Below are positions 8,075-47,008 of a DNA stretch of 47,008 nt, in pieces. Numbering within the stretch: the stretch's first letter is position 1; each line of letters starts with the position of its first letter. This stretch comes from a virus: positions 106,165-153,172 of the IMG/VR virus record IMGVR_UViG_3300045747_000694, one strand, 5' to 3'. The notes beneath the pieces are model-generated. The model made no database searches and was not told the DNA's origin. It saw only the letters and a list, made by a program, of their open reading frames with translations. Both the position numbers and the translations under genes were made by a program.

Positions 8075-8602
8075 ATGAAGCTCCGCCTCAAGAAGACCGC
8101 TGGCCGCTACGACACCGACGCCCCCTACCAGTCGTCGTTCATGCCCAGCGTCCCCGAGAACATGGCCTCTCAGCGGGACCGCGAGGAGCTCGACCGGTTC
8201 CACACAACCCTGGACTCCCGCGTGGACACTCAGGCGACCCTGAAGAAGCTCTTCGACTACGCCACCACCTCTCGCGAGAAGGAGCGCGCCAAGGCGAAGA
8301 AGCTCTTCACGCAGGCAGGCGTGGCCTCCACCAACTCCCCCGGCCTCCAGCCGAACGTGCTGGAGACGCCGGCGCTCGAGCAGGACGCGGGGCTGGCCCC
8401 TGCGGTGAAGACCGCCTCGGCGGAGTTCAGCATCGCCCCGCGCGTCGACGCCTGGTTCGAGAAGAACGCCAGCTCCCTGCTGACCGAGGCGCAGCGTCGC
8501 TACCCCGAGCTGCTGAAGGCCGCGGCCATCCCGTCCCCTTCCCTGAAGCGGGGGAAGAGCACCCCGGTCGTCGCGAGCAGCCTCTCCGGCGGCAGCGCGT
8601 AA
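8075..8602 (+). CDS. Hypothetical protein (175 aa)
   Basis: AGGAG RBS 7 nt upstream. GC3 bias. Confidence 0.65.
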   Translation: MKLRLKKTAGRYDTDAPYQSSFMPSVPENMASQRDREELDRFHTTLDSRVDTQATLKKLFDYATTSREKERAKAKKLFTQAGVASTNSPGLQPNVLETPALEQDAGLAPAVKTASAEFSIAPRVDAWFEKNASSLLTEAQRRYPELLKAAAIPSPSLKRGKSTPVVASSLSGGSA

Positions 8603-13500: not shown

Positions 13501-14371
13501 AACCGGGCCCGCCGGAGCAACCGGTGCGACCGGCGTGACGGGAGCTCGAGGCGCGACCGGGGTCACGGGAGCCACTGGCCCGCAGGGCTCTCCTGGCCCA
13601 ACGGGCGCCGCGATCACGGGAGCCATCGGACCGCAAGGCGTGACTGGCTGGACTGGCCCTGTCGGGCCGCAGGGTCCCACCGGAGCAGCCATCACTGGTG
13701 CAACCGGTCCTGCTGGTCCGACAGGTGCGACTGGCGCGATTGGGCCGACCGGTCCTGCCGGCAGCGGCGCAGTGAAGACGCTGAACCAGGCCTACTGGGA
13801 CGGCGGTACCGGCCCCGGCGGCGTGGGCGGAGAGATCGACCTCAACGCCACCATCGGACCGGTACGCCTCATCGGCTCCGGTGCGGCATCCGGCGGCGTC
13901 TACTTCCAGGTGGCAGACGCCGCCGGCGGCCTGCCTCTCTTCGAGGTGCGCGAGGGCGGTGGCCGCGGCGTCATCATGATCCCGCGCATCGAGCTCGGCG
14001 GCACGCCCCTCACCCCGGCCAACTTCTCGCTCTCTCGTTGGGGCTCGGGTGCGTCTTCCCCCGGCAACTACGGCGTGACGGGAGTCTCCTGCTCCGACGC
14101 CGGCGGGTCGTTCACCGTCGTCGCGGGGCAGACGGGGTACTCGCCAGCGCCCCAGATCACCATCAACTTCAAGGATGGTCCTCGAGCGGGCAACCCCTTC
14201 GTCCTCGCTCGCGTGATGAACCCGTGCATCCCTACGAACGCGAGCCTCTGGGGCTACAGCGTCATCAACCCGGTGCTCATCACCCAGAGCCCGACCTTCA
14301 TCACGATGATGATCCCGGGCTCCCCCACGAACCGCTGCTCCATCACCATCCAGTTCGTCTCCTTCGCATAA
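10568..14371 (+). CDS. Collagen-like fibre protein (1267 aa): about 1060 aa of Thr-rich Gly-X-Y repeats plus a roughly 200-aa beta-rich C-terminal globular domain (BclA-like architecture)
   Basis: Continuous G-P/A/V-T/Q triplets ([13 protein letters not shown]...). A recurrent GAAITGA interruption occurs about 14 times. Non-collagenous C-terminus begins around [18 protein letters not shown] start with an AGAGG RBS. Confidence 0.9.
10700..13760 (+). repeat. Triplet (9/18-nt) coding tandem repeats encoding the Gly-X-Y collagen-like region
   Basis: Reiterated GGN-CCN/GCN/GTN-ACN/CAG units. They create spurious long ORFs in all six frames. Confidence 0.85.
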
Positions 14372-15100: not shown

Positions 15101-18100
15101 ATGACCGTCTCGCTTTGCATGATCGTGCGCGACGTCGAAGAGCACCTCGACGCCTGCCTGGCCTCGGTGGAGAAGTACGTCGACGAGATCGTCATCGTCG
15201 ATACCGGGTCGGTGGATGGGACGAAGGCTGTGGCGCTGCGGCACGGTGCCAAGATCTTCGACTTCAGCCCGGAGACCAACCCCGAAGCCTTCCTGCTCGA
15301 CGATGAGAAGACGATGGCTCCTCCTCCCTACACGGGGAAGTGGATCCTCGCCGACTTCGCCGGCGCGAGGAACCTCTCGTTCGACAAGGCGACCAGCGAC
15401 TTCGTCTTCTGGATCGACTCCGATGATGTCGTGGTGGGTGCCGAGAACATCCCCTCCATCCTGAAGGAGCTCGAGGGGATGCAGATGGGATGTGCCTGGT
15501 TCCGCTACGACTACGCCTTCTCTCCCGACGGGCAGCCTACCTGCCAGCTCTGGCGAGAGCGGATCATGCGGAAGGGCGCGGGAAGGTGGACGAACCCCAT
15601 CCACGAGGTCTGCATCCCCACGCAGGGGTCCGTCAGCAAGAACTACGACTTCGTCGTCATCAAGCACCAGAGGGACGACAACAAGACGCCCGCGGTGGCA
15701 CACCGCAACTACAAGGTGCTGAAGAGGCAGTACGAGAAGGAGAAGGGCGCCAAGAACTTCGACGCCAGGACGCTCTTCTACCTGGGCAACGAGTCGAAGT
15801 TCATGAACGCCGACGAGGCCATCGGCTACTTCGAGCAGTACCTGCGCCTCTCGGGATGGGACGAGGAGCGCGCTGTGGCGCGGATCCTCATGGGCCAGCT
15901 GTTCGAGGTGAAGGGCGACATCGAGGGGGCCTTCCGCGCCTACTCTTCCGCGACCTACGACTACCCCTTCAACCCCGATCCGTACTTCGCCCTCGCCCGT
16001 CTCGCCTACAAGAAGGACGACTGGAGGAAGTGCATCGACTTCACCGAGCACGGGCTGTCCAAGGGGAACCCGCACTCGGCCATCATGTACAACCCCCTCG
16101 ACCGGAACTACTACCCGCACACCTACTACAACGTCGCCCTCAACAACGTGGGCCGGGTGGCTGATGCGGCGAAGTCCTGCGAGGAAGGCCTCAAGTCCGT
16201 TCCGGAAGACACCAACCTCAAGTTCAACAAGCATCTCTACGACGACTACCTGAAGAGGAACCCGCAGCCGGAGAAGCAGGCGACCGCGCAGTCGATCACC
16301 TTCGACGGCGCCTCCATCGACTCTCCGCCCAACCTGCCTTCCGGTGTCGTCGCGACGCTGGGTCTCCAGATCTGGAAGGAGCTGCTTCGCTACGACGAGG
16401 TGGTGAAGGCGCGGACCTTCCTCGAGTCCCTTCCCTATGTCACCGAGGGGAGCGAGGGACTCGAGAAGGCGAAGAAGCTCACCGACGAGATCCTCGAGTT
16501 CGCCACCTCGCCAACCAAGATGCAGGCGCAGTACAACGACTGGCATCACGTCGACGAGGCCATCCCCTTCACGGCACAGGTGCCGAAGCACTGGTCTCAG
16601 TACCCGCGCTTCAGCTCGGTCATGGCGTTCTTCGAGGGGAAGTCGAAGCTGCGGGTCCTCGACATCGGCTGCCAGGACGGCTGGATCTCGAACCGTGTCG
16701 CGCGTCTCGGCCATTCGGTGGTGGGTCTCGACTTCAGCCAGGCCTACCTCGAGATCGCCAAGAGGAACGCCCGGTGCGAAGGGCTCGATGCCACCTACAT
16801 CCTCGGCTTCATCGAGGAGCTCTCCAAGGCGGTCCCTGAGAAGTACGACGTCGTCATCTGCACGGAGGTCATCGAGCACTCCGCGGACCCGGACAAGCTC
16901 ATCAGGGACATCAAGCGTGTGCTGAAGCCGGGCGGGACGCTTCTGCTCTCGACGCCGAAGGGGCACTGGTTCCAGGGGCAGGCGCATGAGTTCGCTTCGG
17001 CATGGAACGCGCCTCGTCAGCACATCCAGGCCTTCACCGTGAAGTCGCTCTCCAAGGTCCTGGGGAACCATCTCCACGTCACCTCCTGCTACGAGATGCC
17101 GGTCCCCACGCCGGACGTCCCTGGGCAGGGCACTCTCTTCGCCGAGGCGGTCTTCGAGATCACCCTCGAGAAGGGCGGGCAGGACATCGTCTTCTACACG
17201 GGGCCAGCGTGGGAGTGGTGGAACGCCAACAGCCCCTACCGAGAGGGGACGGGAGGCTCCGAGCTGGCCTGTGTGGAGATGGCGAAGTCCTTCGCGAGGA
17301 TGGGGCACAGGGTCAGGGTCTACAGCGACTGCCCGGGGATGGAGGGCATCTACGACGAGGTCGAGTACCTGCACTTCTCCCACGCGCAGCCTGGGACCAT
17401 CACCTGCGACGTCTTCATCAGCTCGAGGCAGCCCACTGTTCTCCCGGCGCTCCAGCTCACCGCCAAGGCGCGGATCCTCTGGGTGCACGACATCCACGTG
17501 GGCGCCCCAGGATCGCAGCTGCATGAGGCCCTGCTCCACTACGACAGGATCTTCTGCCTCTCCAAGTGGCATCGCGACTACTTCCTCAGCGTCTACCCCT
17601 TCCTCGACCCGGAGAAGGTGGTCGTCTCGAGGAACGGCATCCTCATCGAGCGCTTCCCCTGTGCCGAGCACGCCAAGGAGAACAAGCTCATCTACACCTC
17701 CTCTGGCAACCGCGGCCTCGAGCTGCTGCTCGACCTCTTCCCCCGCATCAGGGAGAAGGTCCCTGACGTCGAGCTCGAGGTCTACTACGGCTTCAACGTG
17801 TGGAAGTCGGCGGCCAGGAACAGCCCCGACGAGATGGCTCAGATCGAGCGCATCGAGCAGAAGATGAAGAACACTCCCGGCGTCATCACGATGGGCCGGG
17901 AGAACCAGCAGGGGCTTGCCAAGGCCTGGCTTCAGGCCAAGGTCTGGGCCTACCCGACCTGGTTCACCGAGACCTACTGCATCTCGGCCCTCGAGGCACA
18001 GGCTGCCGGCGCCGTCCCCGTGACCACGAACCTCGCAGCCCTCGGGGAGACCGTGCAGTCCGGCTTCCTCCTCAGTCCTCCTCTCAACGAGGAGTACAAC

Positions 18101-18286
18101 AAGGACTTCGTGGACTCGGTGGTGGAGCTGCTCACGGACGAGGAGGAGCGGCAGAAGCACGTCAAGATCGGAAGAGAGGCGGCCGAGAAGCTCACGTGGA
18201 GCAGCTTGGCCCTCGACTGGCGCAAGCAGTTCGATGAGGTGATCGAGGCGGTGAAGGTGAACCCCATCCACAGGTATATGCCATGA
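15101..18286 (+). CDS. Trifunctional glycosylation enzyme: N-terminal GT2 glycosyltransferase, TPR-like linker, class I SAM methyltransferase, C-terminal GT4 (GT-B) glycosyltransferase
   Basis: GT2 signature: IVRDVEEHLDACLASV...IVIVDTGSVDGT and a DSDD (DxD) motif. Methyltransferase motif I VLDIGCQDGWIS and ...VLKPGGTLLLSTP. GT4-like C-terminus: GGSELACVEMAKSFARMGHRV and EAQAAGAVPVTTN. Confidence 0.85.
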   Translation: MTVSLCMIVRDVEEHLDACLASVEKYVDEIVIVDTGSVDGTKAVALRHGAKIFDFSPETNPEAFLLDDEKTMAPPPYTGKWILADFAGARNLSFDKATSDFVFWIDSDDVVVGAENIPSILKELEGMQMGCAWFRYDYAFSPDGQPTCQLWRERIMRKGAGRWTNPIHEVCIPTQGSVSKNYDFVVIKHQRDDNKTPAVAHRNYKVLKRQYEKEKGAKNFDARTLFYLGNESKFMNADEAIGYFEQYLRLSGWDEERAVARILMGQLFEVKGDIEGAFRAYSSATYDYPFNPDPYFALARLAYKKDDWRKCIDFTEHGLSKGNPHSAIMYNPLDRNYYPHTYYNVALNNVGRVADAAKSCEEGLKSVPEDTNLKFNKHLYDDYLKRNPQPEKQATAQSITFDGASIDSPPNLPSGVVATLGLQIWKELLRYDEVVKARTFLESLPYVTEGSEGLEKAKKLTDEILEFATSPTKMQAQYNDWHHVDEAIPFTAQVPKHWSQYPRFSSVMAFFEGKSKLRVLDIGCQDGWISNRVARLGHSVVGLDFSQAYLEIAKRNARCEGLDATYILGFIEELSKAVPEKYDVVICTEVIEHSADPDKLIRDIKRVLKPGGTLLLSTPKGHWFQGQAHEFASAWNAPRQHIQAFTVKSLSKVLGNHLHVTSCYEMPVPTPDVPGQGTLFAEAVFEITLEKGGQDIVFYTGPAWEWWNANSPYREGTGGSELACVEMAKSFARMGHRVRVYSDCPGMEGIYDEVEYLHFSHAQPGTITCDVFISSRQPTVLPALQLTAKARILWVHDIHVGAPGSQLHEALLHYDRIFCLSKWHRDYFLSVYPFLDPEKVVVSRNGILIERFPCAEHAKENKLIYTSSGNRGLELLLDLFPRIREKVPDVELEVYYGFNVWKSAARNSPDEMAQIERIEQKMKNTPGVITMGRENQQGLAKAWLQAKVWAYPTWFTETYCISALEAQAAGAVPVTTNLAALGETVQSGFLLSPPLNEEYNKDFVDSVVELLTDEEERQKHVKIGREAAEKLTWSSLALDWRKQFDEVIEAVKVNPIHRYMP

Positions 18287-36500: not shown

Positions 36501-37851
36501 CGTGGCCTTCATCATCTCGGAGGTGATGCAGTTCGGGGATGATGTCTCCGTCCTGGACTCCGTCGCGATGGTGCTCAGCCGTGGCGGGAGGTGGGGCGGG
36601 CTCGCCGGCCTCAACGACAACGTGGGGACCGGCCTCGGCACTCCCTTCATGTTCGACCAGATGGACTTCTCGGGCCACCACCTGATCCGCTGGGACGATG
36701 GCGTCTTCAAGCTGCGCCGGTCAGGGAAGGACGCCGTCGTTGCAGACGTCGACCACGTGACCGGCACGGTCAGCTTCTCGGGAGACATCGTCTCCACGGT
36801 CATGCCGGGCGCACTCATCAAGGTCGGCGACTACGTCATCTTCGGAAGCGGCCCGAACGCGGGGATCTACCCCATCACGGTGGTGACGGAGGGCGTGGGG
36901 GTGACCGTCGATACGACGGGGAAGTCGCTCACGTCGGGCATCGACCAGCTCTTCCTTGTCGCCAGGAAGATCAGCGAGGTCATCCGCTCTGGTCTCTGCA
37001 ACCGCATCCAGATCGTGGACGCCAGCGGGGTCATGGGGACAACGCGGTACGGGACCAACACCACGGACCCCTACGGCTTCGTCATCGACGCGGGGGACGT
37101 CATCGCCGACATCCCCAGCTCTGCTACGCGAACCGCACGATTCACGGTGACAGGGAACGTCTTGGACGGGGTCATGCCGGGAGACTGGCTCCTCACCTGC
37201 GGAGGTCGGCTCCTCATCACGGATGTGCAGGCCATGATCGTGACGGTCATCGGAGAGACAGACTTCACGCCGGAGGGGAACGCCCCTTACGTCATTGTCC
37301 GCCCCAGCCTGCTCTCTTCCCCATCGGAGAGCTCGTGGTCCATCGTCTCGGACGGCTCTTCGTACTCTTGCGACGATGACCTTCGGCTGATGGCCGACCC
37401 GGGCGACTACCTCGAGGTCGTGTCCCCTACCGGCTTCGCCGAGGTCTATGTCGTCGATGCGAAGTGGAACAACTACCTCCCCGTCCTCCCGGCGGACACC
37501 TACACCGTCCGGCTGAAGAAGAAGAACCGGCCGCAGGGGCCCCTCGGCTTCGACTTCATCCTGAGCGGCGACATCAACGACCAGGTGGACATCTACCTCC
37601 GGTCCCCGAACACCATCATCTCCGACGCCACGGGGACGATCACCATCCCGGCGCATGAGGCGCTCGACATGGGCGCGCAGATCGGGGACTTCATCCGCCT
37701 CTACGACATCACCCAGATCGACAACGGCTACGGCCCTGGGGTCTACCCAATCGCCTCCATCGCTGCCAGCGGAGGAGATGACGTTGTTGTACTCTCCGGC
37801 GGCATGGTTGACGGTGGGACGACCGCCTGGTCCCTTCTCAGGAGACGATGA
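33562..37851 (+). CDS. Giant structural protein (1429 aa) with an N-terminal PKD-like Ig domain; baseplate/fibre-associated
   Basis: PKD-type motif VRLDGSGSVNPTTTELVYTWAITAAP. Long beta-rich body. Operon position between baseplate and fibre genes. Confidence 0.8.
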   Translation: MATFNSGGFGTVSSLVERPTAVVVGLPSVAVLGATVRLDGSGSVNPTTTELVYTWAITAAPIGSKTPYEPFKQITEDWSSVWFSPDLVGEYIIELTVSSGNFESKAQTRISVRAILIPDGRAIVPDGKFIWSYLRDVWQQVEDRQIFETLWSALIQICGAELLKLYQFDFNKSIRDIQEKMQRRWLAYEPRLELDPAGMTAFLGNEEAGQGGSTQALGREAKAVIFASNELIVVEGSVIADVPPYLDILYSRSSSNVGEYRTMGTNAGATGYRINGSIPSTTADRVPGPTSVFTPQFPFQSRTWALQAPPAPQYALKMSMYPPTVDELSDIYSVAGSIGDVRVGDVAYIATGVNVGFYRITASTGIFIEVDRAPPSSSQPSDQVIIFRPVGIKFAPLPGAVSTSFTVPQATPASAIANLAKGRLITIGGRAYPVLRSTLDIRQPVPTFIITTDDSEVVTGRSNLNWRVPNTLVSPTVDFEAKGVTSGDLLLFDVRMEGGSGVAQVAAQVIGVHGYRLAFVVTTAVLSPGEGYTVSDSTIAEAFGALGIRSVTISPTGEVSFSGDAAVLYTFIKSGLFAQQFWNTEIDLSTGFVTPVGRFFVTPRAVIRNSKIPVDDTVLSVPVLQEWVAQPTLVEKDGKVYQKKGDVEYELPRRPVMLVEGNDYLTDGTTAFDDTVPFLTGTATLEVEGAGFLSRQVAPGDKVSIPTAVSLNLPYIVVEVLSEDKLLLSTMIPALLVPVTTERVVVTRRAGGKYLRLLPGGFTAAKPAPDRFWAEVSYFDNSDAIEANFGIMVGLKREDLDKITTRVSYRQAVAGLMFAYTRGSTIEKVRLGAQILLGLPFAEHRGIIRSMESNYRTDASGVPILGRLLIEDVDDVGVPAGIQRVYTYPIDNQSSDLSGVEVNPATGAIYAVDDIVEAFAPLAKGVGVSDYLTDPLNSQSSGISQLQKFHSFRLRANDNLFNIEEITLVSSFLRRITPSYVAFIISEVMQFGDDVSVLDSVAMVLSRGGRWGGLAGLNDNVGTGLGTPFMFDQMDFSGHHLIRWDDGVFKLRRSGKDAVVADVDHVTGTVSFSGDIVSTVMPGALIKVGDYVIFGSGPNAGIYPITVVTEGVGVTVDTTGKSLTSGIDQLFLVARKISEVIRSGLCNRIQIVDASGVMGTTRYGTNTTDPYGFVIDAGDVIADIPSSATRTARFTVTGNVLDGVMPGDWLLTCGGRLLITDVQAMIVTVIGETDFTPEGNAPYVIVRPSLLSSPSESSWSIVSDGSSYSCDDDLRLMADPGDYLEVVSPTGFAEVYVVDAKWNNYLPVLPADTYTVRLKKKNRPQGPLGFDFILSGDINDQVDIYLRSPNTIISDATGTITIPAHEALDMGAQIGDFIRLYDITQIDNGYGPGVYPIASIAASGGDDVVVLSGGMVDGGTTAWSLLRRR

Positions 37852-38489
37852 GCATGAACATCAGCGATGCAGTTCGAGTCAGCGACGCCGGCCTTGTCCG
37901 GGCCGGCACCACTGAGCGCAGCTGGGGCTCCGAGAGGAGCGTCGTCGAGGTGAAGGGCTGGGTGAAGCTGGTCCTGCGAGAGCGGGGCAAGAAGGTCACC
38001 GAGCGCGAGGGGCACAACGTCTGGACCAACACCGGGCGCGAGTTCCTGACCCAGCGCATCAGCCTCGACCTCGCCTCTCCCTCGAGCACCCTTCGGACGG
38101 ACGCGGTCGCCTTCGTCGGAGCCGGCATCGGGGCGAGCACGGAGGAGCCGGGGGTCCTGGCCTTGCAGGACCCGGTGGCCTACGACACCTCGCTCTTCCT
38201 CGCCGAGATCACGGGGGTGTCCTTCCCGGCCTACCCGGTCCGCACCACGGTCGAGTACCAGCGGACCTTCGCCGAGTCCGAGATCACCATCATCCCCGGC
38301 ACCGTCCTCATCTCGGAGCTCGGGCTCTTCACGAACGGCGACCCTGCCGGCACGCCCGCCAACGGCTTCGGCACCAGGAGCCGGGCCCTCAGCAGCTTCA
38401 CGGCGGCCCCCGTGGCGTACAAGAGCTTCGAGCCCGTGGCCAAGACCGAGAACATGCAGCTCGAAGTCTTCTGGCAGATCCGCTTCTAG
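37848..38489 (+). CDS. Tail-associated protein (213 aa); alternative start ATG 37854
   Basis: ATGA overlap with the upstream stop. The AGGAGA RBS is better spaced for ATG 37854. Confidence 0.6.
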   Translation: MSMNISDAVRVSDAGLVRAGTTERSWGSERSVVEVKGWVKLVLRERGKKVTEREGHNVWTNTGREFLTQRISLDLASPSSTLRTDAVAFVGAGIGASTEEPGVLALQDPVAYDTSLFLAEITGVSFPAYPVRTTVEYQRTFAESEITIIPGTVLISELGLFTNGDPAGTPANGFGTRSRALSSFTAAPVAYKSFEPVAKTENMQLEVFWQIRF

Positions 38490-43606: not shown

Positions 43607-44083
43607 ATGCTGAAGCTCGCCAAGGTCAGACCGCACCAGCAAGAGACGCAGCGGACCTGCTCTGCGGCCTGCCTTCGTGCTGTGCTGTTGCACCATGGCA
43701 AGGACGTACCCGAGAGCCTGCTGTCGAAGGCCATCGGGGTAGGGCACTACGGGGCCGAGCTCTACCAGATCGTGGGAGCGGCAAGGGCGTTGGGGTTCAC
43801 AGCGAAGCAAGTCGAGTTCAAGAGCTTGTCAGACGCCTTCGAGCTCCTCGAGAAGGACGTCCCGCTCATCTGCGATGTGCAGAGCTGGACGAAGAAGGGT
43901 AGTGGGCACTACGTCGTTCTCGTGAACGAGAGCGGTGGCCGGGTCAACATCATGGACCCGAACGTCTCAGGCAACTGGCGCACGATGTCCTCGAAGGACT
44001 TCGACAAGCGCTGGTGGGACGGAGACAACGTCTACAGGGGTCGCGTACTTCGTCGACCTTCTGTCATCGTTCGACCGAGGTAG
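43607..44083 (+). CDS. Peptidase C39-like (papain-fold) cysteine peptidase; candidate endolysin/peptidoglycan peptidase
   Basis: Catalytic-type motifs Q-x5-C (QQETQRTCSAACLRAVLLHHG), GHYVVL (His) and DPN...W, as in the C39-like peptidase family. Adjacent to holin/spanin-like genes. Confidence 0.65.
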   Translation: MLKLAKVRPHQQETQRTCSAACLRAVLLHHGKDVPESLLSKAIGVGHYGAELYQIVGAARALGFTAKQVEFKSLSDAFELLEKDVPLICDVQSWTKKGSGHYVVLVNESGGRVNIMDPNVSGNWRTMSSKDFDKRWWDGDNVYRGRVLRRPSVIVRPR

Positions 44084-44086
44084 CAC

Positions 44087-44263
44087 ATGGCAGGGACCGA
44101 CAAGCGCAAGCAGTCACTCTACTTCCCCGAGGACATGCTGGACGAGATGCAGGCGGAGGCCACGAGGCAGGACCGCTCGCTCTCCTGGATCGTGCAGCAG
44201 GCCTGGAAGGTGGCGAAGGAGCAGCTCGCCAAGTACCCAGGCATCAACGACCTGAGTCCGTGA
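44087..44263 (+). CDS. Ribbon-helix-helix (CopG/Arc-type) DNA-binding protein, 58 aa
   Basis: GAGGT RBS. KRKQSLYFPEDMLDEMQAEATRQDRSLSWIVQQAWKVAKEQL matches the RHH beta-strand / helix / helix pattern. Below the ORF-track size threshold. Confidence 0.5.
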   Translation: MAGTDKRKQSLYFPEDMLDEMQAEATRQDRSLSWIVQQAWKVAKEQLAKYPGINDLSP

Positions 44264-44270
44264 GGGCTAA

Positions 44271-44313
44271 AGAAGAAGGGGCGCCCCAGCTGCACGGAGC
44301 GCCCCTCTTCTCT
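44271..44313. terminator. Bidirectional rho-independent terminator between the + strand late operon and the - strand tRNA array
   Basis: agaagaa-GGGGCGC-(14-nt loop)-GCGCCCC-tcttctc. GC-rich stem flanked by T-rich runs on both strands. Confidence 0.6.
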
Positions 44314-44332
44314 CCCTGAACAGCAGTGACAG

Positions 44333-44406
44333 TGCCCCCGGCAGGACTCGAACCTGCGGCCGTGCGCTTAGAAGGCGCCTGCTCTCGTCCTCTGAGCTAC
44401 GGGGGC
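44333..44406 (-). tRNA. tRNA-Arg (anticodon TCT)
   Basis: Manual cloverleaf: acceptor GCCCCCG/CGGGGGC; T-arm GCAGG-TTCGAGT-CCTGC; anticodon loop CTTCTAA; no encoded CCA. Confidence 0.75.
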
Positions 44407-44409
44407 ATG

Positions 44410-44500
44410 TGGCGGAGAGAGAGGGATTCGAACCCTCGCTTTGATGTGATCGCAGACTGGTTTAGCAAACCAGCGGCATGAGCCACTCGCCCATCTCTCC
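44410..44500 (-). tRNA. tRNA-Ser (GCT), class II with long variable arm, CCA encoded
   Basis: Acceptor GGAGAGA; anticodon arm CTGGT-TTGCTAA-ACCAG; T-loop TTCGAAT; discriminator G. Confidence 0.8.
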
Positions 44501-44503
44501 ATG

Positions 44504-44591
44504 TGGCGGAAACGGTGGGATTCGAACCCACGGAGACTTGCGCCTCGCCAGCTTTCCAAGCTGGTGCCTTGAGCCACTCGGCCACGTTTCC
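44504..44591 (-). tRNA. tRNA-Ser (GGA), class II, CCA encoded
   Basis: Anticodon arm CCAGC-TTGGAAA-GCTGG; long variable arm; T-arm GTGGG-TTCGAAT-CCCAC. Confidence 0.8.
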
Positions 44592-44595
44592 ATGA

Positions 44596-44683
44596 TGGCG
44601 GAAGAGGAAGGATTCGAACCTTCGAGGACTTGCGCCCTGCCCGCTTTCGAGACGGGTACCTTGAGCCACTCGGTCACTCTTCC
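44596..44683 (-). tRNA. tRNA-Ser (CGA), class II, CCA encoded
   Basis: Anticodon loop CTCGAAA; long variable arm; T-arm GAAGG-TTCGAAT-CCTTC. Confidence 0.75.
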
Positions 44684-44691
44684 AGAAGGAT

Positions 44692-44711
44692 GCCTCAGAG
44701 AAGGCTGAGGC
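44692..44711. promoter_or_regulatory. 7-bp hairpin (GCCTCAG agaagg CTGAGGC) in the only long (36-nt) spacer of the tRNA array
   Basis: Perfect inverted repeat between tRNA-Ser(CGA) and tRNA-Ser(TGA). Possible processing site or remnant. Confidence 0.35.
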
Positions 44712-44719
44712 GCCCTGTG

Positions 44720-44809
44720 TGGCGGAAGAGGAGAGATTCGAACTCTCGGGAAGCTTGCGCCTCCTGCGGGTTTCAAAGCCGCTGGTTTGAGCCACTCACC
44801 CACTCTTCC
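44720..44809 (-). tRNA. tRNA-Ser (TGA), class II, CCA encoded
   Basis: Anticodon loop TTTGAAA (one mismatch at the stem closure); long variable arm; T-arm GAGAG-TTCGAAT-CTCTC. Confidence 0.7.
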
Positions 44810-44810
44810 C

Positions 44811-45359
44811 TTACTCGTCGTGCTCGAGCTCTCCCTGCCAGTAGCCGTAGTCCGTGAGGAGCTGCTTCCAGGACTGGGGCACCTTCTTGTCCAGGAGGAA
44901 GGTGAGCTTCATCGTGGTCTGGAGGTGTTCCGGCTTCGCTGGGGTCGAGAGGATGTGCATCCTCGCCTGCGCCGGCGTGCAGTCCCTCTTCTTCTGGTTG
45001 CAAGGGGTGCAGCAGACGACGACGTTGGTCCAGTTGGTCTGGCCGCCTTGCGCCCGCGGCGTGACGTGGTCGTAGGTGAAGTCCGACCTCGGAACCTTGT
45101 TGCCGCAGTACTGGCAGCGGCCCTTGTCCCTGGCGTAGACGTTCTCTCGGCTGAACTTCACCGCCGGCTTCCTGCGCCGGATGGTGGAGAGGAACCGGAT
45201 GACCGAGGGCATCTTGAACTCCAAGGTCACCGACCTCACCGTCTTGCTCTCGTACTCCTGCACGACTTCGACCTTGCCCTCCCAGAGCAGGGTCACCGCG
45301 CGTTGCCAGGGAACCCGAGCCACGGGTTCATAGGCATTCGTCAGCACCAGCGTGTCCAT
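44811..45359 (-). CDS. HNH endonuclease (homing-endonuclease-like) embedded in the tRNA array
   Basis: HNH/zinc-finger motif CQYCGNKVPRSDFTYDHVTPRAQGGQTNWTNVVVCCTPCNQKK. Start at MDTLV with an AAAGGAGAG RBS. The longer track ORF would overlap tRNA genes. Confidence 0.8.
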   Translation of the reverse strand: MDTLVLTNAYEPVARVPWQRAVTLLWEGKVEVVQEYESKTVRSVTLEFKMPSVIRFLSTIRRRKPAVKFSRENVYARDKGRCQYCGNKVPRSDFTYDHVTPRAQGGQTNWTNVVVCCTPCNQKKRDCTPAQARMHILSTPAKPEHLQTTMKLTFLLDKKVPQSWKQLLTDYGYWQGELEHDE

Positions 45360-45388
45360 CGGGCTCTCCTTTCTTGGTGTCGTGCTGC

Positions 45389-45465
45389 GTGGTACCCCAG
45401 GAGGGACTCGAACCCTCATCGACGCGGAGTTTGAGTCCGCCGCATGTACCATTCTGCTACTGGGG
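45389..45465 (-). tRNA. Atypical tRNA: anticodon CAA (Leu by anticodon) but class-I structure with a short variable loop; CCA encoded
   Basis: Acceptor GCCCCAG/CTGGGGT; discriminator A; anticodon arm GCGGA-CTCAAAC-TCCGC; T-arm GAGGG-TTCGAGT-CCCTC; no long variable arm. Confidence 0.55.
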
Positions 45466-45468
45466 CGT

Positions 45469-45554
45469 GTGGTGGCCAAGGAGAGAGTCGAACTCTCACG
45501 GTGTTACCCGCACGCTTCTGAGGCGTGTGCGTCTACCAGTTCCGCCACTCGGCC
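45469..45554 (-). tRNA. tRNA-Leu (CAG), class II, CCA encoded
   Basis: Anticodon arm CACGC-CTCAGAA-GCGTG; 13-nt variable arm; T-arm GAGAG-TTCGACT-CTCTC. Confidence 0.8.
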
Positions 45555-45558
45555 ATGA

Positions 45559-45643
45559 TGGTACTCAGGAGGGGAGTCGAACCCCTACGGTGTTACCCGC
45601 CGGCACCTCAAGCCGGTGCGTCTACCAGTTCCGCCACCTGAGC
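45559..45643 (-). tRNA. tRNA-Leu (GAG), class II, CCA encoded
   Basis: Anticodon arm CCGGC-TTGAGGT-GCCGG; long variable arm; T-arm AGGGG-TTCGACT-CCCCT. Confidence 0.8.
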
Positions 45644-45652
45644 GTGAAGAAG

Positions 45653-45725
45653 TACAGGGCCTGGGAATCGAACCCAGCAACTCCGGAGTGTGGAACCGGG
45701 GGAGTCACCAGCTTCCTCGCCCTGC
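45653..45725 (-). tRNA. Atypical tRNA, probably tRNA-Val (CAC). The loop TCCACAC has C at position 33, and there is a T:T mismatch closing the stem.
   Basis: Acceptor GCAGGGC/GCCCTGT; T-arm CTGGG-TTCGATT-CCCAG; anticodon arm CCGG(T)-TCCACAC-(T)CCGG. Isotype uncertain; CCA/Trp is an alternative reading. Confidence 0.45.
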
Positions 45726-45731
45726 ATGAAG

Positions 45732-45803
45732 TTGCGAGCCAGGGATTCGAACCCTGATGTCCGTGGTTATGGGCCACGTGCCTTGCCAGTCGGCCAGCTC
45801 GCA
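45732..45803 (-). tRNA. tRNA with anticodon CAT (elongator Met or Ile2-lysidine type); loop CCCATAA has C33
   Basis: Acceptor TGCGAGC/GCTCGCA; anticodon arm CGTGG-CCCATAA-CCACG; T-arm CAGGG-TTCGAAT-CCCTG. Confidence 0.65.
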
Positions 45804-45808
45804 GTGAG

Positions 45809-45886
45809 TGGTTGCGGGCACGAGGAATCGAACCTCGCTGTTCTCGGGTTATGAGCCCGATGTGTAAGCCGTTTCACTCGCCCGCA
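45809..45886 (-). tRNA. Initiator-like tRNA-fMet (CAT), CCA encoded
   Basis: Anticodon arm TCGGG-CTCATAA-CCCGA (three G:C pairs) and 3' end ...CCCGCAACCA, identical to bacterial initiator tRNA. One extra nucleotide in the acceptor/T-stem junction makes the 5' boundary uncertain by about 1 nt. Confidence 0.65.
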
Positions 45887-45889
45887 GCT

Positions 45890-45966
45890 TGGTGCTCCTG
45901 GAGGGACTCGAACCCCCGGCCCGTTCTTTAGGAAAGAACTGCTCTTGTCCACTGAGCTACAGGAGC
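45890..45966 (-). tRNA. tRNA-Arg (CCT), CCA encoded
   Basis: Anticodon arm GTTCT-TTCCTAA-AGAAC; T-arm GGGGG-TTCGAGT-CCCTC. Confidence 0.8.
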
Positions 45967-45971
45967 GAAGA

Positions 45972-46049
45972 TGGTGCGCCCGGCCAGACTCGAACTGGCG
46001 GCCTCTGGTTTCGGAAACCAGCGCTCTCGTCCATCTGAGCTACGGGCGC
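45972..46049 (-). tRNA. tRNA-Arg (CCG), CCA encoded
   Basis: Anticodon arm CTGGT-TTCCGAA-ACCAG; T-arm GCCAG-TTCGAGT-CTGGC. Confidence 0.8.
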
Positions 46050-46056
46050 GAAGAAG

Positions 46057-46131
46057 TCTCCTCGGAGGGAGTCGAACCCCCGGCCTCATGGTTCGTAGCC
46101 ATGCGCTCTGGTCCAGCTGAGCTACGAGGAG
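46057..46131 (-). tRNA. tRNA-Arg (ACG), no encoded CCA
   Basis: Anticodon arm CATGG-CTACGAA-CCATG; T-arm GGGGG-TTCGACT-CCCTC. Confidence 0.75.
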
Positions 46132-46135
46132 ATGA

Positions 46136-46209
46136 TGGTGCTCCTAGAGAGAATCGAACTCTCGCCTCACCCTTACCAAGGGCGTGCTCTGCCTTAGAGC
46201 TACAGGAGC
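46136..46209 (-). tRNA. tRNA-Thr (GGT), CCA encoded
   Basis: Anticodon arm CGCCC-TTGGTAA-GGGTG; T-arm GAGAG-TTCGATT-CTCTC. Confidence 0.75.
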
Positions 46210-46213
46210 AAGA

Positions 46214-46288
46214 TGGTGGATGTGATCGGGGTCGAACCGACAACCTTCGGCTTGCAAAGCCGCTGCGCTCCCATTGCGCTACACACCC
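46214..46288 (-). tRNA. tRNA-Ala (TGC) with the G3:U70 identity pair, CCA encoded
   Basis: Acceptor GGGTGTG/CACATCC gives a G3-T70 wobble; anticodon loop TTTGCAA. Confidence 0.8.
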
Positions 46289-46294
46289 ATGAAG

Positions 46295-46366
46295 TGGACC
46301 CCCAGGGAGTTGAACCCTGACCTCTGCCTTGCCGAGGCAGCGTCCAGACCGCTAGACGAGGAGCCC
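46295..46366 (-). tRNA. tRNA-Ala (GGC) with G3:U70; loop TCGGCAA has C33; no encoded CCA
   Basis: Acceptor GGGCTCC/GGGGTCC (G3-T70); anticodon arm CTGCC-TCGGCAA-GGCAG; T-arm CAGGG-TTCAACT-CCCTG. Confidence 0.6.
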
Positions 46367-46372
46367 ATGAAG

Positions 46373-46445
46373 TACGCGTGGAGGGAATCGAACCCCCGAT
46401 CTCTGCCATGTCAAGGCAGCACTCTGGCCGCTGAGCTACACGCGC
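46373..46445 (-). tRNA. tRNA-Val (GAC), no encoded CCA
   Basis: Anticodon arm CTGCC-TTGACAT-GGCAG; T-arm GGGGG-TTCGATT-CCCTC. Confidence 0.75.
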
Positions 46446-46449
46446 ATGC

Positions 46450-46525
46450 TGGTGGACCCGAGGGGAGTTGAACCCCTTGCCTCTCGGATGCGAACCGAGC
46501 GCTCTACCAGGTGAGCTACGGGCCC
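46450..46525 (-). tRNA. tRNA-Ala (CGC) with G3:U70, CCA encoded
   Basis: Acceptor GGGCCCG/CGGGTCC; anticodon arm CTCGG-TTCGCAT-CCGAG. Confidence 0.8.
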
Positions 46526-46531
46526 ATGAAG

Positions 46532-46607
46532 TGGTGCGCCCTCTCGGAGTCGAACCGAGATGTCTCGCTCTTCAGGCGAGTGCTTGAACCGTCACAGCCA
46601 AAGGCGC
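46532..46607 (-). tRNA. tRNA-Phe (GAA), CCA encoded
   Basis: Anticodon arm CTCGC-CTGAAGA-GCGAG; T-arm CTCGG-TTCGACT-CCGAG. Confidence 0.75.
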
Positions 46608-46614
46608 AAAGGAA

Positions 46615-46689
46615 TGGCGGGGCCACGGGGAGTTGAACCCCGCTCTCCGGCGTGACAGGCCGGTGTCCTGACCGATGAACGATGACCCC
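46615..46689 (-). tRNA. tRNA-Asp (GTC), discriminator G, CCA encoded
   Basis: Anticodon arm CCGGC-CTGTCAC-GCCGG; T-arm CGGGG-TTCAACT-CCCCG. Confidence 0.8.
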
Positions 46690-46694
46690 TCTGC

Positions 46695-46768
46695 TGGGGT
46701 GAGGTACGGGAGTTGAACCCGCGTTGCGAGAGCCACAATCTCGTGTCCTACCGTTGGACGAACCTCAC
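46695..46768 (-). tRNA. tRNA-His (GTG), discriminator C73, CCA encoded; no encoded G-1
   Basis: Anticodon arm CGAGA-TTGTGGC-TCTCG; acceptor GTGAGGT/ACCTCAC; the base preceding G1 is T. Confidence 0.75.
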
Positions 46769-46771
46769 ACT

Positions 46772-46845
46772 TGGTCCCCCAGCCAGGGGTCGAACCTGGA
46801 CCTGTCGCTTATCAGGCGACTGCTCTACCTCTGAGCTACCGGGGG
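46772..46845 (-). tRNA. tRNA-Ile (GAT), CCA encoded
   Basis: Anticodon arm GTCGC-CTGATAA-GCGAC; T-arm CCAGG-TTCGACC-CCTGG. Confidence 0.8.
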
Positions 46846-46849
46846 AAGA

Positions 46850-46926
46850 TGGTCAAGGTGAGAGGAATCGAACCTCCGGCCTCCTGGTCCCGAACCAGGC
46901 GCTCTGCCAGTCTGAGCTACACCTTG
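46850..46926 (-). tRNA. tRNA-Pro (CGG), CCA encoded
   Basis: Anticodon arm CCTGG-TTCGGGA-CCAGG; T-arm GGAGG-TTCGATT-CCTCT. Confidence 0.8.
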
Positions 46927-46933
46927 ATGAAGA

Positions 46934-47008
46934 TGGTCAGCGTGAGAGGATTCGGACCTCCGGCCTCCTGCACCCCAAGCAGGCGCTCTACCAGGCTGAG
47001 CTACACGC
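46934..47008 (-). tRNA. tRNA-Pro (GGG), 5'-truncated by the window edge; unusual T-loop TCCGAAT
   Basis: Anticodon arm CCTGC-TTGGGGT-GCAGG; CCA encoded; the last 2 nt of the 5' acceptor strand lie outside the window. Confidence 0.65.

Follow-up and report, generated by a model that had tools for sequence, protein, structure and literature searches.

The window (the whole 47,008-nt stretch analysed) carries 25 tRNA genes on its minus strand, which ARAGORN places between positions 44332 and 47008, up to the window edge. The Rfam model RF00005 supports 23 of them at its gathering threshold and 24 once the second Met-CAU gene (52 bits under laxer filters) is counted, while tRNA-Val(CAC) fails. 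The original prediction of a dense minus-strand array of at least 25 tRNA genes is thus confirmed by the gene finder and by the covariance model, and the isoacceptors that it had listed match the ARAGORN content. Phage features of this kind are known, but here the form is unusually compact: a tRNA array almost without gaps.

The genes are given below from the window edge towards lower coordinates, all on the minus strand and all called by ARAGORN, with the Rfam score and the spacer preceding the 5′ end; CCA is encoded unless otherwise stated. The array enters the window with tRNA-Pro(GGG) (46934-47008; 53.1 bits with a 5′-cut flag, the window edge removing 2 nt of the 5′ end), followed by tRNA-Pro(CGG) (46850-46926; 64.8 bits; TCTTCAT), tRNA-Ile(GAU) (46772-46845; 67.5 bits; TCTT) and tRNA-His(GUG) (46695-46768; 58.1 bits). 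The latter has C73 and a T at position -1, so that G-1 is not encoded. Next come tRNA-Asp(GUC) (46615-46689; 57 bits), preceded by the off-pattern spacer GCAGA, tRNA-Phe(GAA) (46532-46607; 54.7 bits; TTCCTTT), tRNA-Ala(CGC) (46450-46525; 62.9 bits; CTTCAT), tRNA-Val(GAC) (46372-46445; 66.5 bits; GCAT), in which the discriminator is followed by CTTCAT without CCA, tRNA-Ala(GGC) (46294-46366; 50.9 bits; CTTCAT), which also lacks CCA and has C33 and a G3:U70 pair, and tRNA-Ala(UGC) (46214-46288; 64.1 bits; CTTCAT). The central part consists of tRNA-Thr(GGU) (46136-46209; 61.2 bits; TCTT), tRNA-Arg(ACG) (46056-46131; 62.8 bits; TCAT; no CCA), tRNA-Arg(CCG) (45972-46049; 67.8 bits; CTTCTTC), tRNA-Arg(CCU) (45890-45966; 66.1 bits; TCTTC), an initiator-like tRNA-Met(CAU) (45809-45886; 41.7 bits; AGC) with three G:C pairs at the base of the anticodon stem, an elongator-like tRNA-Met(CAU) (45731-45803; 52.1 bits with lax filters; CTCAC; no CCA) and the non-canonical tRNA-Val(CAC) (45652-45725; CTTCAT; no CCA). 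Finally, tRNA-Leu(GAG) (45559-45643; 52.3 bits; CTTCTTCAC), tRNA-Leu(CAG) (45470-45554; 53.1 bits; TCAT) and tRNA-Leu(CAA) (45390-45466; 57.8 bits; CAC) are followed by tRNA-Ser(UGA) (44720-44809; 51.1 bits), tRNA-Ser(CGA) (44596-44683; 53.6 bits), tRNA-Ser(GGA) (44504-44591; 61.7 bits; TCAT), tRNA-Ser(GCU) (44410-44500; 58.3 bits; CAT) and the last gene of the array, tRNA-Arg(UCU) (44332-44406; 64.5 bits; CAT; no CCA).

Ser and Arg are thus represented by four genes each, Leu and Ala by three, Pro, Val and Met by two, and Thr, Phe, Asp, His and Ile by one. CCA is encoded by 19 of the 25 genes (76%), a majority somewhat larger than the two-thirds proposed before, and C74 is kept in all six of the others. 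The earlier claim of a bias toward six-codon and GC-rich codon families is not supported: isoacceptors are grouped along the array, of which the window holds only the half from Pro to Arg, and the apparent bias arises because the window edge cuts the array. Indeed, the array of the closest relative, the IMG/VR contig L001 (78% tRNA identity to the window), comprises 41 tRNAs in the same order and covers all 20 amino acids, the Trp, Thr, Gly, Tyr, Lys, Gln, Asn, Cys and Glu genes lying at the position past the window edge, which agrees with the near-complete tRNA complement suggested originally. By analogy, the full operon of the window would number about 41 tRNAs and serve all 20 amino acids.

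Three of the tRNAs have C33. The anticodon loop is UCGGCAA in tRNA-Ala(GGC) and CCCAUAA in the elongator-like tRNA-Met(CAU), whose orthologue in the relative L007 likewise has C33, while tRNA-Val(CAC) combines C33 with G8 in place of U8 and a U31-U39 mismatch; its best Rfam match is tRNA-Sec, at 28 bits and under the cut-off of that family. This G8-type Val-CAC is common to four phages (the window, L001, L007 and L021), with compensatory stem changes. The main role of the array could accordingly be sought in counter-defence, with replacement tRNAs, some with altered anticodon loops, resisting host tRNA-cleaving nucleases, and it has been proposed that changes to the anticodon loop protect phage tRNAs from anticodon nucleases (PMC10264068). 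C33 is also found in these isoacceptors in distant arrays, again with compensatory stem changes, and the tRNA set is complete, extending to hardly used codons instead of being limited to those that differ from the host. On the other hand, the closest relative has no C33 tRNA at all. We regard this role as possible, but only tentatively so; it concerns the purpose of the array and not its anatomy, and is compatible with a polycistronic operon.

The original prediction overlooked three features, namely a protein-coding gene, a hairpin spacer and a terminator. The gene (44811-45359, minus strand) encodes an HNH endonuclease of 182 aa (Pfam HNH_5, 6e-16; phrog_16726, 5e-33) and lies, co-oriented with the tRNAs, between tRNA-Leu(CAA) and tRNA-Ser(UGA). 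Its start codon, which alignment with homologues confirms, is found 30 nt from the 3′ end of tRNA-Leu(CAA) and is served by the ribosome-binding site AAGGAG; its TAA stop ends 1 nt ahead of tRNA-Ser(UGA) and overlaps the tRNA in L001. A dN/dS of 0.25 was obtained against L001. Relatives carry the gene at the same position of the array, and a search with it retrieved IMG/VR viral contigs of 105-209 kb which share the tRNA order. Among named, cultured phages the best match is Myxococcus phage Mx1 (43% identity), surpassed by the metagenome-derived Virus Rctr197k (48%). Most likely, this is a resident homing-type endonuclease travelling with the tRNA-Leu(CAA)/tRNA-Ser junction. As for the other two features, the 36-nt spacer at 44684-44719 (minus strand) folds into a 7-bp G+C-rich hairpin and ends with CATCCTTCT (-17 kcal/mol, z = -4.05, with none of 200 shuffles equally stable), and the terminator scan detected an intrinsic-terminator-like hairpin at 44276-44307 on the minus strand (13 pairs, 9 of them G:C, then CTTCTTT; -38.8 kcal/mol, z = -3.25). 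The latter is located 25 nt past the last tRNA, between the array and a convergent plus-strand gene (44087-44263). The array in the window contains neither a promoter-like site nor an internal terminator.

Bacterial tRNA arrays of 20-40 tRNAs exist (PMC5966550, PMC10272220), and a 58-aa gene neighbouring the array belongs to TIGR04563 (E = 2e-32), a family otherwise bacterial, and the homologues of this gene at 70-80% identity come almost exclusively from Myxococcota genomes. The segment might then be a bacterial or plasmid array unit like those of mycobacteria, Firmicutes and cyanobacteria. This can hardly be credited, since the 47-kb window encodes a baseplate-J/wedge protein as well as very large structural-type ORFs in a run, and the syntenic relatives found are all IMG/VR viral contigs or, like Mx1 and Rctr197k, deposited phages. 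The phage origin assumed from the outset is borne out by the baseplate protein, by the 105-209 kb contigs with the same tRNA order and by the partial array synteny with Mx1. Judging from the TIGR04563 homologues and from Mx1 as the best HNH match among named, cultured phages, the host is probably a member of the Myxococcota (myxobacteria); the 80 Myxococcota loci that were fetched for host leaders contained no tRNA gene.

The spacers are 3-9 nt long at 22 of the 24 tRNA-tRNA junctions, in line with the original description; the two exceptions are the 580-nt gap that holds the HNH gene (44810-45389) and the 36-nt hairpin spacer. The statement that (T)CTTCAT stands before each tRNA was too strong: the exact CTTCAT is present at 5 junctions, and the final three bases are CAT in 11 spacers. 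What actually precedes the tRNAs is a spacer poor in G and rich in pyrimidines, in which -1 is usually U and -2 usually A: 16 of the 22 short spacers fit (T)CTT(CTT)CA(T/C), being substrings of TCTTCTTCA(T/C), and six are off-pattern. When the spacers' own bases were shuffled 20,000 times, the mean number of fits was 2.3 and the maximum 8. Furthermore, G accounts for 5 of the 108 spacer bases where 33 would be expected (p = 1e-11); position -1 is T in 15 spacers, C in six, A in one and G in none, A occupies -2 in 14 of the 22 and C occupies -3 in 16. The pattern is far beyond chance.

Such a motif could nevertheless have no specific function, having been inherited and homogenised by gene conversion or replication slippage, with selection at most removing G. 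The common T-arm and CCA sequences of the tRNA genes could seed these events, and the spacers resemble variable numbers of CTT and CAT units (CAT, TCAT, CTTCAT, CTTCTTC, CTTCTTCAC). In addition, the compact pattern is limited to the window and L001, two related genomes. More distant relatives, among them Mx1 (where synteny is partial), retain the gene order but not the compaction. Arrays with the same tRNA order have long spacers and no CCA in L002 and in Mx1, 1-2 nt spacers in L003, and no such pattern in L007; function therefore does not depend on the CTT-rich part of the leader. Spacer length and CCA status also flip freely across orthologous junctions, CCA status differing at 8 of 18 between the window and L001. 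However, these two genomes are about 22% diverged in their tRNA bodies and only 2 of their 18 orthologous spacers are identical (16 differ), yet L001 shows the same G-avoidance (p = 7e-15) and the same preference at -3/-2/-1, so that a constraint on the spacers has been maintained through their turnover. Moreover, A(-2)U(-1) and the lack of G recur in unrelated arrays with long spacers and a G+C content of 41-65%, a recurrence that homogenisation within one array cannot explain: for the 343 tRNAs of 22 other arrays, position -1 is T in 56%, C in 27%, A in 15% and G in 3%, and AT at -2/-1 is found 99 times against 17.8 expected. We thus consider a motif without function unlikely.

The leader had been proposed as a processing context for RNase P or RNase E. 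RNase E begins the processing of many polycistronic tRNA transcripts in E. coli, and the spacers of the window are single-stranded and contain U, so the leader might be cleaved by RNase E (or RNase G), with RNase P and exonucleases only finishing the ends. We judge this very improbable. RNase E prefers an A/U-rich stretch with a purine two bases upstream, which the spacers do not have, and 3-9 nt spacers consisting mostly of C and U are described as non-canonical sites for this enzyme (PMC4176162). Indeed, the comparable spacers of the E. coli valV-valW, valU and lysT transcripts (UCCU, CUUC, CC and CUC) are not RNase E sites, and these transcripts are separated by RNase P alone, the terminator being removed first (PMC4176162). 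The window operon resembles these operons with short pyrimidine spacers, and a role of the leader as RNase P context is plausible, fitting both this precedent and the U(-1)/A(-2)/no-G signature of the 22 other arrays.

Taken together, we think it likely that the window holds the 3′ half of one polycistronic tRNA operon belonging to a large, uncultivated tailed phage, its tRNAs separated mainly by RNase P and providing a decoding set. Transcription of the minus strand would start at a promoter outside the window, past its edge, and proceed to the terminator at 44276-44307. Given spacers of only 3-9 nt that consist of pyrimidines plus A, RNase P cuts at each 5′ end most likely separate the tRNAs, the G-poor leader with U(-1)/A(-2) offering a favourable and uniform context that would be unable to pair with the 3′-CCA. 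Each cut would leave a 3-9 nt tail on the upstream tRNA; exonucleases would trim it to the CCA in the 19 CCA-encoding genes, while in the six CCA-less ones RNase Z or exonucleases would remove it before the CCA-adding enzyme completes the end. The HNH mRNA, with a stop codon that ends 1 nt ahead of a tRNA, would be freed by these cuts as well.

The suggestion that the complement is tuned to GC3-rich codon usage is weakly supported. The window ORFs have a GC3 of 0.87, and the anticodons absent from the full set of 41 (UAC, UAG, UAA and Ile-CAU) correspond to codons used at 0-2%; but tRNAs are also present for AAA, AGA and UCA, which the phage almost never uses, and the matching is therefore only partial. 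The array may then supply a nearly self-sufficient decoding set matched to phage codon usage. Phage tRNA sets have been proposed to be driven by tRNA depletion and by defences that cleave tRNAs (PMC10264068). If the decoding set is indeed supplied by the phage, translation would be independent of the host tRNA pool, which may be depleted or cleaved during infection.

ARAGORN places 25 minus-strand tRNA genes between position 44332 and the window edge, which shortens the last of them, Pro-GGG, by 2 nt. At the curated threshold of the Rfam family RF00005 (gathering cut-off 29 bits) 23 of the 25 genes are supported, and a rescan of 45640-45900 with a lax filter recovered the second Met-CAU gene (45732-45803) at 52.1 bits; in total, 24/25 genes pass, with scores of 41.7-67.8 bits. 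The covariance model thereby supports all but one of the manual folds behind the original prediction, whose list of isoacceptors is also correct. The exception is Val-CAC (45652-45725), which fails RF00005 and has as its top match tRNA-Sec, at 28 bits and under the cut-off of that family. This gene carries G8 for U8 and C33 for U33, and its anticodon stem is closed by a U-U mismatch. A tRNA-Val type with the G8 D-arm is found at the equivalent array position in the window, in L001 (the closest relative, an IMG/VR contig), and in L007 and L021 (two further loci found with the HNH endonuclease encoded in the array), with compensatory changes in the stems. We accept Val-CAC as a tRNA because it is called by ARAGORN and its G8 variant is conserved in four phages. 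Decay of Val-CAC and of the second Met gene into pseudogenes was considered and rejected, both types being conserved with compensatory changes. An additional ARAGORN call on the plus strand, a tRNA-Arg(CCU) at 37797-37893, is probably a false positive: it is 97 nt long, has no Rfam match and spans the junction of two large ORFs.

With the 3′ end of each gene set by acceptor-stem pairing, 22 of the 24 tRNA-tRNA junctions measure 3-9 nt. Over the whole array this amounts to 25 genes in 2,677 nt (9.3 per kb), and the density peaks locally at 12.4 tRNA/kb (20 genes in 1,619 nt). Two longer intervals, both missing from the original prediction, are a gap at 44810-45389, which contains the HNH ORF, and a 36-nt spacer between Ser-UGA and Ser-CGA (44684-44719, minus strand). 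The latter is the sole long tRNA-tRNA spacer without a gene in the window and can form the hairpin GCCUCAG/CUGAGGC (-17 kcal/mol, z = -4.05); its counterpart in L001 is 68 nt long and has no significant fold. An intrinsic-terminator-like hairpin of 13 bp followed by CTTCTTT (44276-44307, minus strand) lies 25 nt past tRNA-Arg(UCU) and separates the array from a convergent plus-strand gene. Scanning inside the array revealed no promoter-like site and no further terminator-like site, and promoter scans found none upstream of the L001 array either; two plus-strand terminator matches correspond to a T-arm and to a site within the HNH ORF. The CCA end is encoded in 19/25 genes (76%). The six genes without it (Val-GAC, Ala-GGC, Arg-ACG, Met-CAU no. 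2, Val-CAC and Arg-UCU) all keep C74, which continues as CTT in five of them. In tRNA-His (46695-46768) the base at -1 is T, so G-1 is not encoded, and C73 is retained; L001, L002, L023, L025, L045 and Myxococcus phage Mx1 encode G-1, and L003 and L015 do not. Myxococcus xanthus has a Thg1-like enzyme able to add G-1 opposite C73.

Viral tRNA gene clusters have been defined by at least 15 tRNA genes and at least 2 tRNA per kb (Morgado and Vicente 2019; PMC6409571), and the array agrees with this definition in number, density and location in a virus genome. Judged from its sequence, it belongs to the phage tRNA gene clusters, a feature of a known kind, and comes from a lineage without deposited relative. 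As in the clusters of mycobacteriophage cluster C1, T4, T5 and Xanthomonas phage XacN1 (PMC6409571), many co-oriented tRNAs are carried by a large tailed phage of virulent type, amino-acid coverage is near-complete, small ORFs and an HNH endonuclease lie inside the cluster, and the proposed roles are codon supply and replacement of lost host tRNAs. On the other hand, surveyed virus clusters hold 15-37 genes at 2-10 per kb (PMC6409571), so that the window is locally denser; it also differs from them in its common G-poor spacer pattern, in the high share of encoded CCA ends, which flip between close relatives, and in having neither a DNA match nor a match of its baseplate-J-like protein among deposited phages. 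A megablast search of 50,697 deposited phages gave no match to the array, a sensitive blastn search only generic tRNA-to-tRNA matches, and tblastn with the baseplate-J-like protein none.

The spacers had been described as a recurring CTTCAT leader. The motif is real; its uniformity was overstated, since exact CTTCAT occurs at only 5 junctions. Half of the short spacers (11/22) end in CAT, and 16/22 are substrings of TCTTCTTCA(T/C), a fit reached by a mean of 2.3 and a maximum of 8 spacers when their own bases were reshuffled in 20,000 trials. The spacers outside the pattern are AGT, GCAGA, TTCCTTT, GCAT, AGC and CTCAC. Overall composition is T49, C36, A18 and G5, compared with 33 G expected (p = 1e-11); position -1 is T15, C6, A1 and G0, position -2 is A in 14/22 and position -3 is C in 16/22. 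In L001, 16/31 spacers fit the same pattern and G makes up 10/164 bases (p = 7e-15). Only 2/18 orthologous spacers are identical between the two arrays, and encoded-CCA status differs at 8/18. Since spacers and CCA ends have diverged and the pattern is nevertheless common to both, the spacer style has been maintained through turnover. More distant arrays share the gene order but not the CTT-rich spacers, which are a trait of one sublineage. The general feature across arrays is confined to the last two spacer bases: among 343 tRNAs in 22 other arrays (41-65% G+C), -1 is T in 56%, C in 27%, A in 15% and G in 3%, and AT at -2/-1 was observed 99 times versus 17.8 expected (p = 3e-45). Antisense coding of the spacers, which read ATGAAG on the plus strand, was ruled out because the tRNA genes leave an ORF no room.

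Comparable spacers are known from the E. coli valV-valW, valU and lysT transcripts, in which UCCU, CUUC, CC and CUC separate the tRNAs and RNase P strips the terminator first and then proceeds 3′ to 5′ (PMC4176162). These 2-4 nt pyrimidine spacers are not RNase E sites, and CCA is encoded (PMC4176162); the window spacers TCTT, TCTTC, CTTCTTC and CTTCAT are of the same kind, and a Rho-independent terminator, predicted in the window, follows the last tRNA in both. The window thus appears to combine the elements of a short-spacer polycistron, namely pyrimidine-rich 3-9 nt spacers without RNase E site and a terminator. It differs in having at least 20 consecutive different tRNAs, as against 2-7 mostly identical ones in E. 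coli, and six genes without CCA. Separation by RNase P only, as in the E. coli operons, would extend to this array.

Which genes the array contains, how they are oriented and spaced, the terminator, the statistics of the spacers and their conservation are observed here; that the array is transcribed as one unit and cut apart mainly by RNase P is our proposal. Bacterial RNase P RNA prefers U at -1, and the U(-1) preference of the window matches this. A leader lacking G at -1 to -3 would be unable to pair with C74-C75 and would leave the CCA free. The G-free style is best explained as an RNase P context; the RNase E context proposed as an alternative in the original prediction is unlikely. Each RNase P cut would leave a 3-9 nt tail on the upstream tRNA. 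Going by standard bacterial pathways, exonucleases would trim this tail to CCA where CCA is encoded, while the six genes without CCA would need RNase Z or exonucleases plus the CCA-adding enzyme. The HNH mRNA would be freed by the same cuts as the tRNAs, because the gene has tRNAs 30 nt upstream and 1 nt downstream.

Syntenic arrays on IMG/VR contigs were found with the in-array HNH protein as probe, and all relatives were collected in this way. L001 (78% HNH identity) has 41 tRNAs in 4.9 kb and is compact, with spacers of the window type; a search of IMG/VR for the exact junction pattern recovered its contig as the sole one. L002 (61%) has 30 tRNAs with spacers of 50-600 nt and CCA not encoded, and L003 (62%) has 34 tRNAs plus a tmRNA and several 1-2 nt spacers. 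A metagenome scan with the HNH protein yielded short contigs, which confirmed the link between Leu(CAA) and HNH and added no genome to the compact sublineage. The L001 array covers all 20 amino acids in the order Trp...Pro-Pro-Pro-Ile-His-Asp-Phe-Ala-Val-Ala-Ala-Thr-Arg-Arg-Arg-Met-Val-Leu-Leu-Leu-HNH-Ser-Ser-Ser-Ser-Arg. From this order and the 41 genes of L001, the window contains the 3′ part of an array with probably about 41 genes in all. The enrichment of six-codon families seen in the original prediction is then an artefact of which half of an isoacceptor-grouped array falls in the window.

The tRNA bodies of the window and L001 are 78% identical (range 61-95%), and the HNH DNA 79%. Four tRNAs (Phe, Ala-GGC, Ile and Thr-GGU) have the same anticodon and position in both and are only 61-67% identical, and the window Ala-GGC is of the type found in L007, not in L001. 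The low identity at matched positions and the L007-type Ala-GGC suggest that single tRNA genes have been replaced inside a fixed array order. In L003, a tmRNA gene (8192-8543; Rfam 121.9 bits) lies between Ala-CGC and Thr-GGU; the corresponding Ala-UGC/Thr-GGU interval is a 4-nt spacer in the window and a 231-nt gap in L001, and no Rfam family was found in the long gaps of the L001 array.

The protein gene within the array, unreported in the original prediction, encodes a putative HNH endonuclease of 182 aa (44811-45359, minus strand) between tRNA-Leu(CAA) and tRNA-Ser(UGA). It runs in the same direction as the tRNAs, with AAGGAG as its ribosome-binding site, starts 30 nt past tRNA-Leu(CAA) and ends with a TAA stop 1 nt before tRNA-Ser(UGA). 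The protein matches Pfam HNH_5 (6e-16; 58.5 bits versus a cut-off of 27.5) and phrog_16726 (5e-33), and its Pfam domains are HNH_5, HNH and HNH_4 only. The zinc-binding cysteine pairs and the motif of PF14279/PF01844 are present, with the zinc-binding and catalytic residues C82, C85, H98, N112, C117 and C120 invariant in four homologues, and in the PDB the protein matches HNH domains of IscB/Cas9-like proteins. Purifying selection acts on the gene (dN/dS 0.25 versus L001). Homologues of at least 40% identity occur in co-oriented tRNA arrays on many viral contigs (41-65% G+C), in Mx1 and in Rctr197k, a metagenome-derived virus (L178). The loci were all retrieved through the HNH protein, so that positional counts concern HNH-bearing sites: the HNH start codon lies within 120 nt of the upstream tRNA in 19/24 loci, this tRNA is Leu(CAA) in 14/24, and a tRNA-Ser follows in 9/24. 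HNH-bearing arrays include L001-L003, L007, L008, L011, L014, L017, L023, L166, L169, L170 and L178; the HNH stop codon abuts or overlaps the 5′ end of tRNA-Ser in the window, L001 and L166. HNH genes have been noted before in phage tRNA clusters (PMC6409571).

A related arrangement is that of SegB, a homing endonuclease encoded inside the T4 tRNA gene cluster and believed to favour transmission of the tRNA region around it (PMC2330249). In both cases a free-standing nuclease gene lies among tRNA genes and is co-transcribed with them, as predicted here. We rejected membership in the SegB family because SegB is a GIY-YIG enzyme and the Pfam domains of our protein are HNH only. Unlike SegB, the window nuclease, whose cleavage activity is putative, occupies one position, tRNA-Leu(CAA)/tRNA-Ser, across very divergent phages in the loci found through HNH, and it evolves under purifying selection. 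The HNH protein may nonetheless work like SegB, and the most economical reading would give it a homing-type role linked to the Leu(CAA)/Ser junction.

The window (about 65% G+C) contains a 1,487-aa baseplate-J/wedge-like protein (Baseplate J, Pfam 4e-05; phrog_6 baseplate wedge, 4e-14). The baseplate genes and the syntenic arrays on IMG/VR contigs, Mx1 and Rctr197k support a viral location; the window itself has no gene for a capsid or terminase. Among the phage structural-type genes sit a 1,267-aa protein (10568-14371, plus strand) with nine stretches of collagen triple-helix repeats (Pfam 2e-122), encoded in a segment of 72-75% G+C, and a 1,061-aa fusion (15101-18286, plus strand) of glycosyltransferase family 2, methyltransferase, TPR repeat and glycosyltransferase group 1 domains. 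Two plus-strand genes converge on the terminator of the array. One (43607-44083) encodes a protein of 158 aa similar to the C39-type peptidase domain of ABC transporters that export bacteriocins, and the other (44087-44263) a 58-aa TIGR04563 family protein (E = 2e-32), for which an exact look-up found no record. Homologues with 70-80% identity to the 58-aa protein are almost all in Myxococcota genomes, and it looks like a host-derived gene in the phage. The closest HNH match among named, cultured phages is that of Mx1 (43% identity over 96% of the protein); metagenome-derived Rctr197k is higher, at 48%. Because of the TIGR04563 homologues and the Mx1 match, the host is probably in Myxococcota. 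In 80 Myxococcota loci retrieved for a comparison with host tRNA leaders, no tRNA gene was present.

Mx1 (OR576727), with a genome of 55.5% G+C (PMC10720576), shares with the window the orders Pro-Pro-Ile-Asp-Phe and Arg(ACG)-Arg(CCG)-Arg(CCU)-Met-Met-Val-Leu, an HNH homologue directly past a tRNA-Leu and probably the host phylum. Unlike those of the window, its tRNAs are scattered across some 20 kb and interspersed with small ORFs, CCA is encoded in 1/37 ARAGORN calls, a leader of the CTTCAT type is absent, and the baseplate-J-like protein, the sole structural protein tested, has no detectable homologue. The 37 ARAGORN calls (at 43-64 kb of the record) compare with 22 annotated tRNAs; because their order partly matches the window array, the additional calls are suggested to be real, diverged tRNAs.

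U33 is almost universal in tRNAs. Three genes of the window, Ala-GGC (46294-46366), Met-CAU no. 2 (45731-45803) and Val-CAC (45652-45725), carry C33 in the anticodon loops UCGGCAA, CCCAUAA and UCCACAC, respectively. C33 occurs in 3/6 genes without CCA and in 0/19 genes encoding it. The matching isoacceptors of distant arrays (L007, L025, L171 and L178) also have C33, with compensatory changes in the stems, and these are therefore conserved variants rather than products of decay. Across the arrays 26/388 tRNAs are non-U33, and every one has C33; none is present in L001. A full-text literature search for C33 in phage tRNAs yielded no paper. A speculative reading, to which we give little credence, is that the operon was shaped by conflict with host tRNA-targeting defences, C33 conferring resistance to anticodon nucleases and the tRNA-Leu(CAA)-HNH-tRNA-Ser module acting as a mobile driver that spreads arrays between phages. 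If true, C33 would be an undescribed route to phage tRNAs resistant to host anticodon nucleases.

GC3 of the window ORFs is 0.87. The anticodons absent from the 41-gene set (UAC, UAG, UAA and Ile-CAU) read codons at 0-2% usage, and tRNAs are present for the near-unused codons AAA (0.00), AGA (0.02) and UCA (0.02). The array is a near-complete decoding set of the high-G+C type rather than a supplement for a handful of rare codons. Phage tRNA sets have been viewed as freeing translation from a depleted or attacked host tRNA pool (PMC10264068), and the array would fit such independence.

The array and its spacer pattern are real and far exceed what chance would give, and the original interpretation, a near-complete tRNA complement tuned to the phage's codon usage with a leader that may serve RNase P or RNase E, is borne out in part. 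The array is distinctive in its near-maximal packing, maintained G-free spacers, rapid CCA flipping and an HNH gene embedded at a conserved position. Present views on the reasons for phage tRNA carriage are unchanged; what is added is a phage lineage, probably infecting Myxococcota, with about 41 tRNAs packed near the physical limit. The HNH gene positionally conserved in the arrays of many phages and the recurrent C33 tRNAs are worth studies of their own. Finally, two diverged genomes keep the G-free spacer pattern while single spacers and CCA ends turn over, and the array is a natural setting in which to test how far a long tRNA polycistron can be processed by RNase P alone, and which features of the leader count.
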